From: a virus
Virus record (IMG/VR): IMGVR_UViG_3300036832_000330
Span: 29,648 to 93,647 of that record
Reading direction: 5' to 3' (one strand)
Length of the DNA stretch: 64,000 bases
Part shown: positions 8,029 to 63,396 of the stretch, piece by piece
Numbering within the stretch: the first letter of the stretch is position 1
Layout: the number at the start of each line of letters is the position of its first letter
Notes under the pieces: generated by a model
The model's database searches: none
What the model saw: the letters and a program-made list of their open reading frames with translations, nothing else
What the model was told of the DNA's origin: nothing
Made by a program: the position numbers and the translations under genes

Positions 8029-9894
8029 ATGCCCACCTTGACCAGGCCGGGGGTTTACGTCGATGAGTCGTCGTTCCCCACCTACATCGGTGCCACTCCC
8101 GGCACAGCCGCGGCGTGCTTCGTCGGCCCGTGCCCTCGCGGCCCGTGCCAGGTGGGTCAGTCGGGTGGGGCCAACCTGCCTGTCGCCTATGGGGTGACAC
8201 CGACGCGTGTCAACTCCTGGAGAGAGTTCACGGCCTGGTTCGGTGGCTTTGAGACTGCCTATCCCCCCAGCCTCCTGCACTTAGCTGTCTATTGCTTCTT
8301 CTCTGCGGGCGGCACCAATGCCACGGTCATTCGATCCATTCGTCAGGACGCCTCTGGGCCAGTGGTGGCGAGCCACACCTTCAATGACTCCCAGACCGTA
8401 GCGCCCCGAACCGTGACTGATGGCGTGACGACGAGTACGTCGGCCACGGTAACGTCAGCCACCGCCAACTTCACCACCAACGACATCGGCAGGACGATCT
8501 CGGGTGCCGGCATCCCTGCCAACAGCACGATCATCACGATCAACAGTGGCACCAGTGTCGTCATCTCCGCGAATGCCACGGCCACCGCTACCGCAGTCTC
8601 TCTGACTATCAGCGGCGGCGGCTTGCCTACCCTGGAGGTTGACGCAGCGAATCCAGGTGCGTGGGCCTCTGGTACGACCCAGAATCCCAACGGGGGACTG
8701 TGGATCGACATCCTGCCGGGAACCATCAGGGACTCCCACTCAAACATCATCAGCTTCACTATCCAAGTGAAGTATCAGGGCAATGGCCCCAACAATGTCG
8801 TAGAGCATTGGCCGGATCTATCCATGATCCCCGGTTCGACCAACCTGGGCCAGGCCAACTACGCCCCTGACATCATCAACAACCCCTACACCGGGTCGAA
8901 GTACATCCATCTGGTGGACAAGGGAAATGTGCCCACTCCCCCGGCTATACGCGACTACACCTGGAACCCGTCCACCACCACCGCTTCGCAACAGTTGACC
9001 GGTGGCTCTGACGGCCAGCCCATCACCTTCCAGGATCAACTGTCTGCTCTCCAACAACTGGATGCGTACCCGGAGCAGCCCTTCGTGATCAACATGCCGG
9101 GGCTGATCACCGGGTCGGACATCTCTAGCGTGGTGGGCTACGCCCAGACTCGTGGCGATAGCTTCGTGGTCATCGATTGCCCGCCGGCCTACAGCCCCAG
9201 CGCCATGGTCACCTTTGCCCAGGCTCTGTCGTCCAGTGCCCAGTGCGCCATCTACTACCCCCAGGTGAAGATCTCCGACCCGTACTCGGCGGTGCCGGGA
9301 GTGACGCGCATGGTGGCACCGGGTGGCTTCGTGGTCGGTCAGTACATCGCCACTGACGCCAGGCGGGGGGTGCAGAAGGCTCCCGCCGGCCTGGGCAACT
9401 CCCTCCTGGGGGCCTTCGGCGTGGAGACCATCCTCACCAACACTGACCAGGGCAACCTGACCCAGGCCAACGTCAACTGCATCATCTCGGTGCCTGGCGC
9501 AGGCGTGGTGATCTGGGGCGCTCGCACCCTGTCGCCTTACCTCGTCACCCGGTACGTCCCCGTCGAGCGCACTCTGCTCTATCTCGCCACTGAGATGACG
9601 GCCATGACCAAGTTCGCGGTCTTTGAGCCGAACGACTGGGTGTTGTGGAACATGATCACGTCGGTCCTCAGCCAGTTCTTGACCTCGTTCTGGCAGAGCG
9701 GTGGTCTGCGGGGGACGAGTATCTCGGAGGCGTTCTACGTCACCTGTGACAGCAGCGTCAATACGCCTCAGTCCATTCAGCAGGGCATCGTCAACGTCGA
9801 GGTCGGTGTGTCGCTCCAGTACCCCGCTGAGTTCGTCATCATCTCCATCGGCCAGTGGGCCGGTGGTCAGAGCGTCAGCGTCACCACTACCTGA
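8029..9894 (+). CDS. contractile tail sheath protein
   Basis: RPGVYVDE N-terminus; YYP, KAPAG, WGARTL, YVPVER, AVFEPND, PAEFV C-terminal motifs. Confidence 0.96.
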   Translation: MPTLTRPGVYVDESSFPTYIGATPGTAAACFVGPCPRGPCQVGQSGGANLPVAYGVTPTRVNSWREFTAWFGGFETAYPPSLLHLAVYCFFSAGGTNATVIRSIRQDASGPVVASHTFNDSQTVAPRTVTDGVTTSTSATVTSATANFTTNDIGRTISGAGIPANSTIITINSGTSVVISANATATATAVSLTISGGGLPTLEVDAANPGAWASGTTQNPNGGLWIDILPGTIRDSHSNIISFTIQVKYQGNGPNNVVEHWPDLSMIPGSTNLGQANYAPDIINNPYTGSKYIHLVDKGNVPTPPAIRDYTWNPSTTTASQQLTGGSDGQPITFQDQLSALQQLDAYPEQPFVINMPGLITGSDISSVVGYAQTRGDSFVVIDCPPAYSPSAMVTFAQALSSSAQCAIYYPQVKISDPYSAVPGVTRMVAPGGFVVGQYIATDARRGVQKAPAGLGNSLLGAFGVETILTNTDQGNLTQANVNCIISVPGAGVVIWGARTLSPYLVTRYVPVERTLLYLATEMTAMTKFAVFEPNDWVLWNMITSVLSQFLTSFWQSGGLRGTSISEAFYVTCDSSVNTPQSIQQGIVNVEVGVSLQYPAEFVIISIGQWAGGQSVSVTTT

Positions 9895-57788: not shown

Positions 57789-58240
57789 CCCGGCAGCCCA
57801 CCTACTGGGACCAGGCCAACGTGGCTTGTGTGCCATGCCGGGGCCGGGGCTGGATCATCGAGGAGGATCCCTCCTCCGGTGCCCCTGGCCGGGAGGTGAG
57901 GTGCCCGTACTGCCATGGTCGCCAGACCACATGGTGGGTGGCTCGCAACCGCCACAAGAGGATCATTCGCCCCCGCGTGCGGATGATCCTCATCCTGATC
58001 TCACTGACCTACAGCGTGTGGCCCTCTCACCACTTCGCCGCCCACATGTACGTCCTCATCCCCGTGGTGAGCTTCCTGGTGCTGGCCTGGATCAGGCCGT
58101 CCCTGTGGCCCCACCGGTCGCGCCGGCAGCATGCCCCTGGCTTCACCGACCCCCGTGAGGGCAAGGCTCTGGGCATCTTCGGGGCCGTGGTCGGTCTCCG
58201 CAGCCTGTTCACGAACCACACCAACCAGAGGGGGTTCTGA
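57785..58240 (+). CDS. membrane protein with CxxCxGxG finger
   Basis: CVPCRGRG..CPYCHG, then two TM helices. Confidence 0.6.
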   Translation: MTRQPTYWDQANVACVPCRGRGWIIEEDPSSGAPGREVRCPYCHGRQTTWWVARNRHKRIIRPRVRMILILISLTYSVWPSHHFAAHMYVLIPVVSFLVLAWIRPSLWPHRSRRQHAPGFTDPREGKALGIFGAVVGLRSLFTNHTNQRGF

Positions 58241-58295
58241 AAAAATGTCCTCCCCTGACACCGCAAGCACTCGCATGTGCCCTACCATGGTTCAC

Positions 58296-59810
58296 ATGGC
58301 ACATGACATCAACTTCGACCACCTCCTCCCCGATGGGCAGGAACTCAAGCCTTTCCAGACCACGGGTGTCGCATACGCCCTGATGGCTGCCCAGGACGGC
58401 AAGGGCGTGATGATCGGTGACGAGATGGGCCTGGGCAAGACGGCCCAGGGCATCGTCCTCGCCAAGCTGTTCGCCGCCGCCCACAGCATCGAGGCCCCCA
58501 AGTTCCTCTTCGTGGTCCCGCCCTCGCTGAAGGGCAACTGGGAAAAGGAGATCAACCGTTTCGCCCCCGAGTGGGACGTGCAGATCCTGCTGGGCAAGAG
58601 GCCCTACGCCCTGGTGGGCAACGTCGCCATCATCGGCTACAACCTGCTCAGCACCTGGGCCAAGGCTCTCATCGCGGAGGGCTTCACCGCCGTCACCTTC
58701 GATGAGAGCCACAAGGTGAAGGATCCCTCCACCCTCCAGACCAAGGCTGCTCTCAAGGTCGCCGCCGACGTTCGCTCCCGCAAGGGCCTGGTGGCCCTGC
58801 TCAGTGGCACGCCCTTCCTGAACCGCCCGGTGGAACTGGTCAGCCAGCTACAGATGATGGGCCGCATCGAGGAGATCGCCCCCCTGCCCCGCTACGGCAC
58901 CTCTGACAAGGACTGGGAGTTCAGCTTCAAGAACACCTTCTGTGCCCCTAAGAAGGTCTACCGGGGCCGTCAGTCCTTCACCGAGTACAAGGGTGCCAGC
59001 CGCCAGGATCTGATGAACACCAACCTGCGGAACCGGTGCTACGTGCGTCGCCTCCGCTCTGAGGTGCTGAACATGACCGAGACCCACCGGATCCACATGC
59101 CTCTCAGCCTCAACGGTGACCTGGATCCCTACTGGGAGGTCGAGAAGAACTTCCAGGCCAAGGATCCCCGCTCCTTCATGCTGGAACTGCTGACCCAGCT
59201 TCGCATCACCGCTGGCGTCTGCAAGATCCCCGCCGCTGTCGAGTGGGTCAAGACCTTCATCGAGGAGAACGAGGGCAAGAAGCTGGTGGCCTGGGCCTGG
59301 CACATCGAGGTGCAGCAGGAACTGACCAACGCCCTCAACGCTGCCGGCATCGAGGCCATCTACCTGAAGGGGGAGCAGGACAAGGGCCAGATCGAGGAGG
59401 CCAAGGCTCGTTTCAACGAGGGCACCGCCCAGGTCATCGTGTGCTCGCTGCAAGCGCACCGTGAGGGCCACACGCTCCTGGGTGATGGCACCAACGTCAC
59501 CGACAGCCTGTTTGTCGAGCAGCCCTGGCATTGTGGGGCCGTCGCCCAGGCAGAGGATCGGATCTCCCGCATCGGTCGCACCGCGGAGGCCGTCTTCGCC
59601 CACACGCTCATCGTCCCCGGCACCGTGGACACCTGGCTGGAGGACATGATCGCCAGCAAGTGGGCCACCTTCAAGGCTGGGGCCGATGGCACCATCTCCG
59701 ACTGGAACGAGAGCAGTGCCCAGAAGGAGATGATGGATCGCCTCGCCGCCCACCTCCGGGCCAAGTACGGTGAGGGCCGGTTGCCCCAGCCCCCCCAGGA
59801 GGAGGGCTGA
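58296..59810 (+). CDS. SNF2-family (SMARCAL1-like) helicase/translocase
   Basis: LKPFQ, GDEMGLGKT, NWEKEI, DESH, LSGTPFLNRP, RRL, QAEDRISRIG. Confidence 0.93.
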   Translation: MAHDINFDHLLPDGQELKPFQTTGVAYALMAAQDGKGVMIGDEMGLGKTAQGIVLAKLFAAAHSIEAPKFLFVVPPSLKGNWEKEINRFAPEWDVQILLGKRPYALVGNVAIIGYNLLSTWAKALIAEGFTAVTFDESHKVKDPSTLQTKAALKVAADVRSRKGLVALLSGTPFLNRPVELVSQLQMMGRIEEIAPLPRYGTSDKDWEFSFKNTFCAPKKVYRGRQSFTEYKGASRQDLMNTNLRNRCYVRRLRSEVLNMTETHRIHMPLSLNGDLDPYWEVEKNFQAKDPRSFMLELLTQLRITAGVCKIPAAVEWVKTFIEENEGKKLVAWAWHIEVQQELTNALNAAGIEAIYLKGEQDKGQIEEAKARFNEGTAQVIVCSLQAHREGHTLLGDGTNVTDSLFVEQPWHCGAVAQAEDRISRIGRTAEAVFAHTLIVPGTVDTWLEDMIASKWATFKAGADGTISDWNESSAQKEMMDRLAAHLRAKYGEGRLPQPPQEEG

Positions 59811-60034: not shown

Positions 60035-60712
60035 ATGGCACATGACTACCGCACCAACCCGCTGACCTACACCTTTGAGGGCGTCACCGTCCGCTACGCC
60101 GGCCAGATGACCATCACCCAGATCCACGCCCACATCAACGCCATCACGGCCCAGGCCAAGAGACTGGCCCCGCGTGTGGCTGAGGAGGCCCTGGAGTCCT
60201 GCTGCACCAACACCCGCCCCACCGGCCCCAAGCAGGCCCGTGCCTGGGATCTGGTGGCCCAAGGCTTCGCCTGGAACGCCCTGGCTGGCCTGCTGACCGA
60301 CGAGGAGGGCATGACCCGCTACCTGGCCCGCACCCAGCCCCAGGCCCAGGAGGCCCCCAAGACCTACGTTTACCATCACCGCTACAGCCCGCCCGCCGGG
60401 GACATGTTTCAGGTCCACGCCGATGGCTCTGTGTTCCTCCAGGCTGGCACCGATTGGGTCAAGCTGGCTGAACTGAACGCCGCCAGCTACCGCAAGGCCG
60501 TGGCTGAGGGTCTGGCTGAACTGGTCGACATGACCCCCCAGGCTGCCTCCCAGCACGCCTCCACCCCCCAGTTGCTCTCCGACGAGGTCAAGGTCAACAC
60601 GGTCGCCAAGCTGACCGGCACCCCCAAGGCTGAGGTCGCTGCCCGCATCGCCCGCCTCGCCCAGCAGGACGAGGTCATGGCCCGCCTGGAGGGTGATGAC
60701 ACCAGCCACTGA
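60035..60712 (+). CDS. hypothetical protein
   Basis: TAGCTT-N6-ATG start; MAHD N-terminus. Confidence 0.65.
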   Translation: MAHDYRTNPLTYTFEGVTVRYAGQMTITQIHAHINAITAQAKRLAPRVAEEALESCCTNTRPTGPKQARAWDLVAQGFAWNALAGLLTDEEGMTRYLARTQPQAQEAPKTYVYHHRYSPPAGDMFQVHADGSVFLQAGTDWVKLAELNAASYRKAVAEGLAELVDMTPQAASQHASTPQLLSDEVKVNTVAKLTGTPKAEVAARIARLAQQDEVMARLEGDDTSH

Positions 60713-60736
60713 CACCACACGCCACCACGCAGCACC

Positions 60737-60761
60737 GCAGCCCCCCACCACGGGGGGCTGC
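60737..60761 (+). terminator. hairpin after the 60035 gene
   Basis: GCAGCCCCCC-accac-GGGGGGCTGC. Confidence 0.5.
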
Positions 60762-60779
60762 TTGGCGTATGGTCCCAGG

Positions 60780-61076
60780 ATGCCTACCACGCCTGCACCC
60801 CGGCCTCGCCGGCAATCCGCCCCCCTGCCCAAGATCACCCCGCCCACCGATCCGCCCACCGTAGCCCTGCCCTTCCCGGTGTATCGCTACCGGGTGCTGT
60901 TCTCGGACGGGCAGACGGTCGACTTCCTGAGCTACGCCGACCACTCGGGCATACGAGGCCAGATGCTCGACGCCCACTTCGGCCCCAAGAGGCCCAAGGA
61001 GGCCCAGGACCGCATCGAGGGCATCGCCCACCTGGGAGAGGCATACGTGTACACCCCGCAGCCTCCAGCACCCTAG
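60780..61076 (+). CDS. hypothetical protein
   Basis: TATGGT-N6-ATG start; YRYRVLFSDG. Confidence 0.6.
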   Translation: MPTTPAPRPRRQSAPLPKITPPTDPPTVALPFPVYRYRVLFSDGQTVDFLSYADHSGIRGQMLDAHFGPKRPKEAQDRIEGIAHLGEAYVYTPQPPAP

Positions 61077-61368
61077 AAGGCCCGCATACGACCCCACACG
61101 GTCGTATGTGACGACGCAACGCCCACAACGCACCACGGGTCCATACCGCCCCCTGTGACCGCCTAGAGCCACACAGGCCCTCTACAGGGCAACGACGCTT
61201 GCAGCAGGCCCACCTGGCCCCCAGATCCGCCCCGTTGCCCCAGGAGAGCAGGAGCTACACCCCACCTACACGTAGACAGGCCAGCAGGCACACCAGCCAG
61301 CACCCATCACACCCCGGCTATGCCGGGAGCAACTCATGGTGAGTGGATGTAGCCCTGGCACCTGGCCC

Positions 61369-61673
61369 TGAACACCTGTTCGGGCCATGGGGCACACCTG
61401 TTCGCCTGTACTCGAACACTTGTTCCCCACATGGGGTACAAGTGTTCGCATGATGACGCATGCGTACGCATGCTATGCATACGCATAGCTATGCAGGGGG
61501 TAAACGAGCCTTATGCCATAAGGGGTTCTCGACCACACGAGTACACACGCATACACACAGCTGCATACTCGAACACCTGTTCGGGAACAGGTGTTCGAGG
61601 CACCCCCCACCCTTATCGAACGTGTGTTCGGGAGACGGGGCCAGGAGGTACGCTTACCTGGATTGTGTGTTCG
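61369..61673. repeat. array of LexA/SOS-box-like palindromes (CGAAC-N4-GTTCG)
   Basis: Sites at 61369, 61391, 61413, 61435, 61570, 61584, 61617 and a half-site at 61660, in non-coding DNA. Confidence 0.8.
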
Positions 61674-61865
61674 TGTGTAGTACCCGTGGGTGGGTGAAGA
61701 GGTGCGGCGTAGTACCTGGGAGTCGGCTGTAGGCGGCGCTGTGGAATCTCGGTAGTACCGTTTCAGAGGGGTAGTACCGTCATTTGGGGTCGAGCTAGAC
61801 GTTTTCGCAGGCTCCCGAAGGGCTAGCTGCGAGTTTTCGCAGGTCAACGCACGTTTTCGGAGTGA

Positions 61866-61895
61866 TTGACGGTGAACACGGGCATGTGGTAGGGT
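61866..61895 (+). promoter_or_regulatory. sigma-A-like promoter
   Basis: TTGACG-N18-TAGGGT with an extended TG, upstream of 61950. Confidence 0.55.
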
Positions 61896-61949
61896 GGTGT
61901 CGGCTATCTACCACGCCGTACGACCGACACGAGACAAGGAACGACTGAC

Positions 61950-62420
61950 ATGAACGAGACCGAGTACCCGTCTGACTACCACCCTGGGCGATGTGCCATC
62001 TGTGACGCCGTAGAGCCAAAGGGCGGGCTGATACGCCGGCAGTTGCCGGTGGGAATCGTCTTGGTGGATGAGCAGGACCGGGTGTACCGGACTGGGGCCG
62101 GCGAGTACGCCTGGTACTGCCGTCTGGACGGTGACTGTAGGAGGAGAAGGAAGCAGATCGAGGCCCAGGCCGAAGAGGGCATGCACCGGTTCCTGGCTGA
62201 CCCCGATGCTCGACACGCTCTCCTGCGGAACAACCACAACCTGATCTACCGGATCAACGCCGATGGCACCGTGACTCAGGGGCGGGAACTCCTGGCTGAG
62301 GTACTCAAGGGCCAGGTGCCAGAGGGGGGCGTGTACCGGTTCAATGAGGAGGAGGAGTTGCGCCGGCTGACGGAGTACCTCGACGGCGCTTTCAAGAAGA
62401 AGGAAGCTCGTGACAACTAG
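61950..62420 (+). CDS. hypothetical protein
   Basis: AAGGA RBS; CAIC..YC...C. Confidence 0.65.
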   Translation: MNETEYPSDYHPGRCAICDAVEPKGGLIRRQLPVGIVLVDEQDRVYRTGAGEYAWYCRLDGDCRRRRKQIEAQAEEGMHRFLADPDARHALLRNNHNLIYRINADGTVTQGRELLAEVLKGQVPEGGVYRFNEEEELRRLTEYLDGAFKKKEARDN

Positions 62421-63396
62421 CGAATACGACAACGAAGACCTGCTGGCCCAGATACGGGTGGCCGTAGCGGCGTTGGACGCCGTGACGAGCATGCTGTTGT
62501 CCCTGGAGCATGGCGTGGAGGTACGGCCCCTGAGCCGGGAGGAACGGGCCATGGCCCTGGAGGGCTTCTCCCGGCCCCGGAGGAGGAAGAGGAAATGGGA
62601 AGGCGTGGACATGGAGGAGATGCTGCGCCGGCATGTGGCCGGGGAAACGATCAAGAGCCTGTCCGACGAGGTGGGCATGAGCCAGAACTGGCTGTACCAA
62701 CGCCTGCACCAGTTGGACCCGGACTGCTCCCAGAAGGCCATGCTGGTACGCCGGCAGGAACGCTACGAAGCTCGGGACCGGGGCCAGAAGCCGCCCCCCT
62801 ATGTGCAGATCTCCAAGGTCGAGGACGTGGAGGCGGCTCGGGAGTTGTGGCTGGAAGGGGCCACGTTGCAAGAGATCGGTGACCGCTACGGGGTTACCAG
62901 GGAGCGGATCCGCCAGGTGATAGAGCAGCGGTTCCCCGGCTCGGGGAAAGAAGCTCGTAGACGCCGTATGGAGCGCCACGATGAGCGCAAAGCAGAGCAG
63001 GCCGCGCAGGAGGAGGCCGACAGGGAGGCCCTGATCGCGGCGCGGGGCCACGAGGCCCCGGCCTGCTGCGTGTGCGGTAAGCCCAACATCAGAGCCTTGA
63101 CCAACCCCGGCTTCACCTGTTGCTCGCATGAATGCTCGGAAGCCTGGCCGGTGCTGCGCTACTACATCGAGGAGGGGCACGCCGAGAAGCACCGCATGCA
63201 GATGGCCCGCTGGCAGGTCGAGAACGAAACGGACCCCGTCAAGCTGCGCTACGCCCAGCGGGTGCTGGATGGCAAGGTAGGCCGTCCGGTGCAGCACTTC
63301 GGTATCCGGCCCGGTACGAAAATCTGGGAGATGGCGAAGAAGTTCCGCCCTGATTTACTGGAGGGCGACATCAACGACAGGAAGGAAGAGAGATGA
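62410..63396 (+). CDS. HTH protein with a sigma-70 region 4-like domain
   Basis: TLQEIGDRYGVTRERIRQV; second HTH GETIKSLSDEVGMS; CCVC..CCSHEC. Confidence 0.75.
   Translation: MTTSEYDNEDLLAQIRVAVAALDAVTSMLLSLEHGVEVRPLSREERAMALEGFSRPRRRKRKWEGVDMEEMLRRHVAGETIKSLSDEVGMSQNWLYQRLHQLDPDCSQKAMLVRRQERYEARDRGQKPPPYVQISKVEDVEAARELWLEGATLQEIGDRYGVTRERIRQVIEQRFPGSGKEARRRRMERHDERKAEQAAQEEADREALIAARGHEAPACCVCGKPNIRALTNPGFTCCSHECSEAWPVLRYYIEEGHAEKHRMQMARWQVENETDPVKLRYAQRVLDGKVGRPVQHFGIRPGTKIWEMAKKFRPDLLEGDINDRKEER

Follow-up and report, generated by a model that had tools for sequence, protein, structure and literature searches.

Why does a phage that looks virulent and encodes no LexA of its own carry a phased array of LexA-box-like sites in a stretch of DNA without genes? 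The array lies in a window of 64,000 nucleotides, the final 64 kb of an IMG/VR record of 93,647 bp with an estimated completeness of 80% and a GC content of 62% (62.6% in the window). A first-pass annotation had seen in it a possible LexA decoy or origin. The record carries genes for terminase, portal, major capsid protein, tail sheath and tape measure, a replication set of Pol I, primase, DnaB, two SNF2 helicases and a RecA/UvsX-like recombinase, and in addition a DpdA-like transglycosylase and an anti-restriction protein. Searches of the record for tRNA, integrase and resolvase found none, and a lysogeny module was ruled out by the lack of integrase or resolvase. A search of the record for the LexA DNA-binding domain (LexA_DNA_bind, PF01726) gave no match at E <= 1, which rules out that the phage encodes a LexA or LexA-DBD protein of its own. 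For the major capsid protein the nearest relatives, at 70-71% identity, come from the Streptomyces myophages BRock, LuckySocke, Alone3, GiJojo and pSt2308, whose genomes are 112-116 kb in size. Judged by these capsid relatives the host is probably Streptomyces-like, an actinobacterium of that kind being the most likely one. A DNA-level search of INPHARED found no close relatives of the phage, nor did a search of IMG/VR with the neighbour proteins encoded at 62410-63396 and 60035-60712 find relatives. The Arthrobacter phages Laroye and Kovu, which have the nearest SNF2 helicase, were set aside; the identity is only 28-29% over the helicase and the gene neighbourhood differs.

The sites lie in a gap of 873 bp (61077-61949) that separates two rightward operons on the same strand. 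In the left operon are a SNF2 helicase gene (58131-59810) and genes of 225 aa and 127 aa, the latter with its end at 61076. The right operon begins with a 156-aa gene at 61950, followed by a 328-aa double-HTH gene. The gap had been described as gene-free, and it is: no ORF within 61077-61949 has a coding GC3 signature, and the island has neither a Pfam nor an Rfam match, the latter ruling out a known RNA family. The eight listed sequences are all present in the window at the positions given for them. Cluster 1 (61369-61448) consists of four LexA-box-like sites at 61369, 61391, 61413 and 61435, which are, as had been reported, exactly 22 bp apart; this is two helical turns, and the sites therefore lie on one face of the DNA. 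Sites 1 and 3 of this cluster are near-full palindromes; in sites 2 and 4 only the right arm is present. Cluster 2 (61570-61673) has an abutting doublet, the perfect site 61570 and site 61584, whose starts are 14 bp apart; one more site follows at 61617, and then the half-site 61660. In total the island has five full sites and three half-sites (61391, 61435 and 61660, right arm only).

The clustering exceeds expectation. The palindrome CGAAC-N4-GTTCG, allowing at most one mismatch, has six matches in the 64 kb, five of them in the island, where 1.35 are expected, and none of 100 shuffles reached six. The 11-mer ACANNTGTTCG occurs seven times in the 93,647-bp record, always inside 61372-61597. 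In the five full sites the arms are either perfect (10/10, three sites) or have one mismatch (two sites). At position 6 there is an A in seven of the eight sites and a G in one, and position 9 is a T in all eight. A T precedes the box, giving TCGAAC, at 61412, 61569 and 61616.

These features were compared with the boxes that actinobacteria use at their own lexA genes. Among 61 genomes of the class Actinomycetes 59 had lexA, and the 450 bp upstream of it were read for 30. Boxes of the form CGAAC(A/G)NN(T/C)GTTCG were present in 30 of the 30, two to five in each and most often four. The spacing between them (loci L204-L232) is 15-17, 23-24, 29-30 or 33 bp. Since every sampled actinobacterial lexA has two to five boxes, operator arrays are the norm there. 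All 106 boxes of this set have A/G at position 6 and T/C at position 9, and a position weight matrix (PWM) was built from them. In the 93.6-kb record five positions reach or exceed the score of the weakest host box, 61369, 61413, 61570, 61584 and 61617; shuffled genomes give a mean of 1.0 match. The scan of the whole genome for site density, which the first-pass annotation had suggested, thus places every match in the island. Sites 61570 and 61617 stand at the 92nd and 85th percentile of the host boxes. The reading of the individual sites has to be corrected in part: the five above fall within the host range, and 61391 and 61435, which had been listed as sites like the others, turn out to be right arm only, as is 61660, all three scoring below every host box used. 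In relatives, full sites occupy the places of 61391 and 61435.

The ChIP-seq motif of Streptomyces venezuelae LexA is tCGAAC-N4-GNNCGa, with one dominant half, and site 61617 shares 13 of 14 bases with the validated S. venezuelae lexA-2 box (PMC9380542). In the island the GTTCG arm is invariant and its partner looser, which fits a motif with one dominant half. Set against the actinobacterial or Gram-positive LexA operator (SOS or Cheo box), the island has the palindrome with R6/Y9, and five of its eight sites score inside the range of genuine host operators; none is located where a repressed promoter would have it, at about -35 to +20. The proposed LexA-operator-like identity, including R6/Y9, is well supported by this match to the boxes upstream of lexA and by arms that are conserved around a free centre in four island variants. 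We infer that the repeated element is bound by host LexA, which is likely though by a good deal less than certain. What the phage would do with it is probably to dock LexA or to soak it up, because related phages hold the sites in the same places.

A pattern scan found homologous islands in metagenomic phage contigs. One is a 57-kb contig (L016/G001) that is syntenic with the window over 49.6-61.1 kb at 40-70% protein identity. Another type is found in L044/G002 and in the 115-kb contig L190, and L199 has a fourth variant. The proteins flanking the islands in L016, L044/L190 and L199 are only 40-65% identical. In a four-way alignment the box positions nevertheless coincide, and the positions of cluster 1 are occupied in L190/L044 and L199. 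Three-way identity is 67/96 (70%) in the arms, 4/16 (25%) in the central NN and 74/193 (38%) between the sites (Fisher p = 5e-7). The spacings of 22/22 and 14/33/43-44 bp are common to the window and L190/L044, and the variants retain the GCATGC palindromes, CCAGGAGGTA, GTAGTACC and the hairpin at the centre as well. The orientation of the array relative to the downstream promoter is the same in all of them. The downstream genes vary, being RHH-like in L190 and L199 and unrelated in L016. Equivalent arrays are thus present in L016, L044/L190 and L199, but not in the complete 117.5-kb relative G007, in which the 127-aa gene stands directly before other genes with no island and no such sites, nor in the cultured Streptomyces phages BRock, LuckySocke, pSt2308 and GiJojo, which have no array and only scattered one-mismatch matches at about the control level. 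As a non-coding module the island is conserved, yet accessory. A link to genome ends was also considered, as several arrays are near contig ends, and rejected: the island is mid-contig in G001, it is 2.7 kb from the contig end in L190, the end of G002 is an assembly break, and nothing consistent emerged.

The module extends from the end of one rightward operon to the promoter of a variable, early-type operon. Its upstream neighbour in all four island variants is a homologue of the 127-aa gene (60693-61076, + strand), which is also present in G007, where the island is absent. tblastn and alignments gave 14 homologues of this gene but no Pfam domain and no family. The AF2 model of the protein has a beta-beta-alpha-beta core (mean pLDDT 75.5) and a best fold match of Z 4.6. 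Its candidacy as the binder of the palindrome was rejected, since neither a family nor a fold match beyond Z 4.6 turned up and its homologue is present in G007 without the island. Directly after its stop codon an inverted repeat forms a hairpin with a 9-bp stem (CATACGACC / GGTCGTATG, 61085-61108, + strand) without a T-run. The conserved left border of the island is CAACTCATG (61330-61338, + strand); its core AACTCA is invariant in the four-way alignment, and the 9-mer is common to the window, L199 and, minus the last base, L016.

The core between the two clusters (61449-61569) is the AT-richest part, with 51% GC as against 62.6% in the window. It carries two 12-bp palindromes ATGCRTACGCAT, at 61460 and 61475, and a palindrome or hairpin CCTTATG-C-CATAAGG (61509-61523). 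The core elements GCATGCGTAYGCATGC and CCTTATG..AAGG are kept in L190 and L199. Between the sites of cluster 2 lie a C-tract (61602-61612) and CCAGGAGGTA (61641-61650). Further right a repeat search showed four copies of GTAGTACC on the + strand, at 61677, 61709, 61752 and 61771 (61677-61778), with 2-4 copies at the equivalent place in relatives. They are followed by three + strand copies (61799-61862) of a repeat family of CGTTTTCGCAG-like 12-mers, (A/G)(C/A)GTTTTCG(C/G)AG, found in the record only in the island. This triplet abuts, directly upstream, the -35 of a sigma-A-like promoter, TTGACG-18-TAGGGT with extended TG (61866-61895, + strand), and is likely where a regulator of that promoter, from phage or host, would bind. 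The promoter was found by our own scan, a stricter tool scan giving none. No other promoter-like site was found on either strand of the island and none inside the array, so that promoters within the array are ruled out. The sites had been said not to overlap the promoter, and the nearest one does end at 61673, 193 bp upstream.

The first downstream gene (61950-62420, + strand) encodes 156 aa with CxxC motifs and no Pfam family match; it is not kept in relatives, which have the RHH-like gene in its place. The next encodes a 328-aa protein (62410-63396, + strand) with two HTH segments, one sigma-70 region 4-like (Sigma70_r4, 4e-08) and one resolvase-HTH-like (HTH_7, 6e-04). Cumulative GC skew has a sharp V-shaped minimum at 61617 of the window (91264 of the record), inside the island. 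From about 54.4 kb onward the skew declines steeply, and in the island it swings abruptly upward, with + strand genes on both flanks; the flanks differ on one and the same strand, being C-rich to the left and G-rich to the right.

Arrays of this kind are not confined to one phage lineage. Triple arrays, defined as three sites with gaps of 5-35 nt, were found in 45 IMG/VR contigs with a GC content of 26% to 69%, and the reversed pattern in none. The contigs form about 15-20 unrelated groups that share no common neighbour protein except SNF2 helicases in a few, and a shared host factor is the simplest explanation for triple arrays in unrelated phages whose GC runs from 26% to 64%. Forty other arrays are in non-coding gaps of 180-1200 bp. 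Only 4 of the 40 overlap a sigma-70-like promoter, which, together with the lack of overlap in the island, gives ordinary operator action no support. Two of the low-GC array loci were compared with cultured phages by BLAST, which gave nothing useful.

Look-alikes are found as well. In five of the 45 IMG/VR contigs, with 69% GC (L022, L033, L035, L042 and L054; family B) the palindrome array is coding. Eight copies of CGAACA-NN-TGTTCG, exactly 21 bp apart (L054:3116-3276), translate into the repeated heptad xEQ(V/L/M)Fxx, which lies in the linker of a DUF1376-like protein of 390 aa whose gene immediately precedes dnaB. A coding repeat of this type also occurs in the genome bins L118 and L095. 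The lambda origin lies inside gene O, and by analogy the family B array may be an origin that lies within an initiator gene. Since its palindrome is coding, family B was rejected as evidence for LexA. A DUF1376 initiator was searched for in this phage and in four other array-bearing records and is absent from them.

In bacterial genomes the triple pattern is common, with at least 120 matches, and was found in Acidimicrobiia, Firmicutes, Elusimicrobia, Photobacterium and one archaeal bin. Acidimicrobiaceae chromosomes have a conserved triple LexA box with 30/33 bp spacing (L076:3501-3577), about 1.5 kb upstream of a Y-family (ImuB/DinB-like) polymerase gene of the same strand, with a small ORF and a PIG-L deacetylase-like gene in between; a second pair of boxes, 49 bp apart, is about 60 bp to 6 kb off depending on the genome. 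Prevotella and Bacteroidaceae have 22-bp tandem arrays of CGAACATATGTTCA in 3-5 copies at no fewer than 10 loci per genome, for example L084, L101, L104, L110 and L123 (Prevotella sp. RUI435 and other Bacteroidota MAGs), and Elusimicrobia MAGs have palindrome arrays with 17-19 bp spacing at several loci. Neither phylum is known to employ this LexA motif. Bacteroidetes have no canonical LexA, their SOS motifs being GGA-N5-TCC and CTAA-N5-TTAG (PMC8565304), and another factor reads the palindrome there. The palindrome is not exclusive to LexA.

A phi29-like contig (L011; Phi29_MCP, 17 kb, GC 36%) has five LexA-type boxes at 8588-8759, 70 bp from its end, that adjoin the scaffold and capsid genes, one of them overlapping a perfect TTGACA-17-TATAAT promoter; phi29 itself has its Spo0A boxes in this region. 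E. coli-type SOS-box triples (ACTGTATATCCATACAGT, 33-bp spacing; L233, L236 and L235) are found in a few IMG/VR contigs. As an independent test they were discarded, since eight contigs against two with the reversed control, about four of them canonical, are too few.

Several explanations of the island have to be weighed against this evidence. That the repeats arose by chance, or are selfish and without function, is exceedingly improbable. Nothing speaks for it except that repeats are generally frequent between the genes of phages, none of the 100 shuffles equals the observed count, and all PWM positions fall within one 305-bp stretch of the 93.6-kb record; the conservation pattern, with arms kept across four diverged islands while the spacers drift, refutes it. 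An ordinary SOS operator, through which LexA would repress the 61866-61895 promoter directly and render the downstream operon damage-inducible, is very unlikely. The array does lie upstream of the island's only promoter, in the same orientation in all variants, and LexA-controlled phage genes are well known (GIL01, PMC4551915). However, the sites are 193-520 bp upstream of the -35 with none in the -35 to +20 zone, the promoter-proximal position is taken by the three CGTTTTCGCAG repeats, and the genes that would be controlled are not conserved among the island variants. It is also unlikely, if clearly less so, that the island is a replication origin or another cis site whose iterons are read by a phage protein, the likeness to LexA boxes being coincidental or convergent. 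The phased repeats flanking an AT-richer palindromic core of 51% GC would suit an origin, as would the skew minimum at 61617, which is sharp despite rightward transcription on both flanks, the recombination and helicase genes upstream, and the further repeat families within the island; the lambda-like arrangement of family B, with eight palindromes at 21 bp in a DUF1376-like gene upstream of dnaB, and the arrays in phyla without canonical LexA point the same way. Yet the record and the neighbourhood of the island have no initiator-like, Rep, O, DUF1376 or LexA-like gene, the downstream genes differ among variants, and the sole constant neighbour, the 127-aa protein, occurs also without the island. 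The lack of such sites in a complete relative and four isolates, and so of a conserved place, would be odd for an essential origin. A co-evolving iteron should moreover drift across islands with 40-65% identical flanks, yet the arms remain at the host consensus, and unrelated phages have the same motif but no common neighbour protein.

Two readings remain in which host LexA itself would be the binder. One takes the island for a sponge or decoy: the replicating genome would bring hundreds of high-affinity sites, pull LexA off the chromosome and turn SOS on without damage. Five strong sites and three half-sites, two of which outrank 85% of host lexA boxes, could serve this, and promoter overlap is absent here and in 36 of the 40 other arrays. 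The phage looks virulent, and a high copy number is therefore to be expected. The island is dispensable, missing from G007 and four cultured relatives, as expected of an accessory host-manipulation device. A sponge requires no fixed geometry, however, and the spacing, the bracketed core, the flanking motifs and the position beside the same upstream gene and before a promoter are conserved across variants; SOS induction could also activate host defences or resident prophages. The literature searched contained no precedent for LexA arrays or decoys in lytic phages. This reading is improbable to about the same degree as the origin, and so is its general form, that virulent phages of Gram-positive hosts carry promoter-free LexA-operator arrays acting in trans as a DNA sponge. 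The conserved geometry favours instead an accessory island with host LexA docked around its conserved core of palindromes, acting as an SOS-sensitive gate. This is slightly ahead of the sponge and origin readings and is preferred tentatively, as a possibility somewhat short of an even chance. In its favour, host lexA promoters themselves use arrays, with spacings of 15-33 bp, and the host regulators Spo0A and CtrA on virulent phage DNA offer precedents by analogy, as does LexA on GIL01. Against it, no site overlaps a recognisable promoter, the nearest being 193 bp upstream of the -35, three of the eight are half-sites weaker than any host box used, and the same palindrome is coding in family B and arrayed in Bacteroidota without canonical LexA. 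A constitutive LexA block would also seem costly for a virulent phage.

If the island is an SOS-sensitive gate, LexA dimers would occupy both clusters in the undamaged cell and form a tight nucleoprotein block around the core. Such a block could hinder transcription that reads through into the operon downstream, or else replication or recombination that starts locally. Cleavage of LexA, through the host SOS response or the phage RecA-like protein, would then dissolve it. Titration of LexA by the replicating phage DNA might be a by-product or the alternative main effect.

The island can be set beside several known systems. With the actinobacterial lexA operator arrays it has in common the 14-bp palindrome, R6/Y9 and several boxes per region. 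The phage array differs in being larger (five full and three half-sites as against 2-5 boxes), in its two clusters around a palindromic core, in overlapping no promoter and in its carrier, a virulent-looking phage without its own LexA. In the temperate tectivirus GIL01, LexA exerts control through dinBoxes at the P1 promoter with the co-repressor gp7 (PMC4551915, PMC6182141). Like the island, GIL01 has several SOS boxes of the CGAAC-N4-GTTCG type; it uses host LexA directly and has a Gram-positive host. Its boxes, however, are in a promoter and maintain lysogeny, whereas the island shows no promoter overlap and no sign of lysogeny. With neither promoter overlap nor an integrase or resolvase, it does not fit a switch of the GIL01 type.

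Host regulators are also found on the DNA of virulent phages. Spo0A binds the Bacillus phages phi29 and Nf and blocks early promoters and replication initiation (PMC2731898). As in the island, a lytic phage has multiple sites for a global regulator of the host that it does not encode. Spo0A binding couples infection to the state of the host, the signal being sporulation, as against DNA damage for LexA. The phi29 sites overlap mapped promoters and origins, whereas those of the island overlap no recognisable promoter, and an origin near them is hinted at by the skew minimum and the AT-richer core. Spo0A on phi29, with its block of early promoters as well as replication initiation, is the closest worked example for an SOS-sensitive gate. 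Comparative genomics showed CtrA sites in phages of Alphaproteobacteria, described as 'lytic deferment' (PMC9437464). There too the sites of a host master regulator are conserved on virulent phage genomes, but they are promoter-associated and scattered, and the island is a phased array in one place. The island shares with such host-regulator arrays on virulent phages its several consensus sites, a regulator not encoded by the phage, and conservation. The iterons of lambda-type origins resemble it in being phased, dyad-symmetric repeats beside an AT-richer stretch. They are in or beside the initiator gene, whereas the island has no initiator nearby, is absent from close relatives and has a motif that is fixed on the consensus of the host's LexA.

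The use of host LexA at promoters is known from temperate elements, among them GIL01, CTX-phi and coliphage 186. Phage DNA with sites for host regulators is known too, as is the use of LexA by mobile elements; what is new is a promoter-free, phased and conserved LexA-box array on a virulent-looking actinophage. If LexA loads on the island, it would be seated on a promoter-free conserved array and not at a promoter as in the temperate elements. This would point to a general, undescribed way for lytic phages to sense or reprogramme the SOS state of their Gram-positive hosts, a generality that rests on the recurrence of the array across dozens of uncultured phages unrelated to one another (45 contigs of IMG/VR, with 0 in the control). 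A sponge, if that is what the island is, would be a DNA-based counterpart of protein anti-repressors, with the host SOS regulon turned on or reshaped without damage. LexA loading on the island would also matter for predicting how phages behave under DNA-damaging antibiotics. The coding and Bacteroidota look-alikes warn against equating every such palindrome array with a LexA site.

One of the island's repeats has a distribution of its own. Of the 16 copies of GTAGTACC in the 93.6-kb record, 15 are on the + strand regardless of gene orientation, where composition predicts about 1.1 per strand; positions in the window beyond the island include 4180, 5656, 6194, 6213, 6434, 31849 and 33763. The same polarity is seen in relatives, at 7:1 in G001, 9:2 in G007, which has GTAGTACC yet no LexA-like array, and 1:5 in G002, where the island is reversed. 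With this strand bias GTAGTACC may be a polar motif, comparable to Chi, to KOPS or to motifs that give the direction of packaging.
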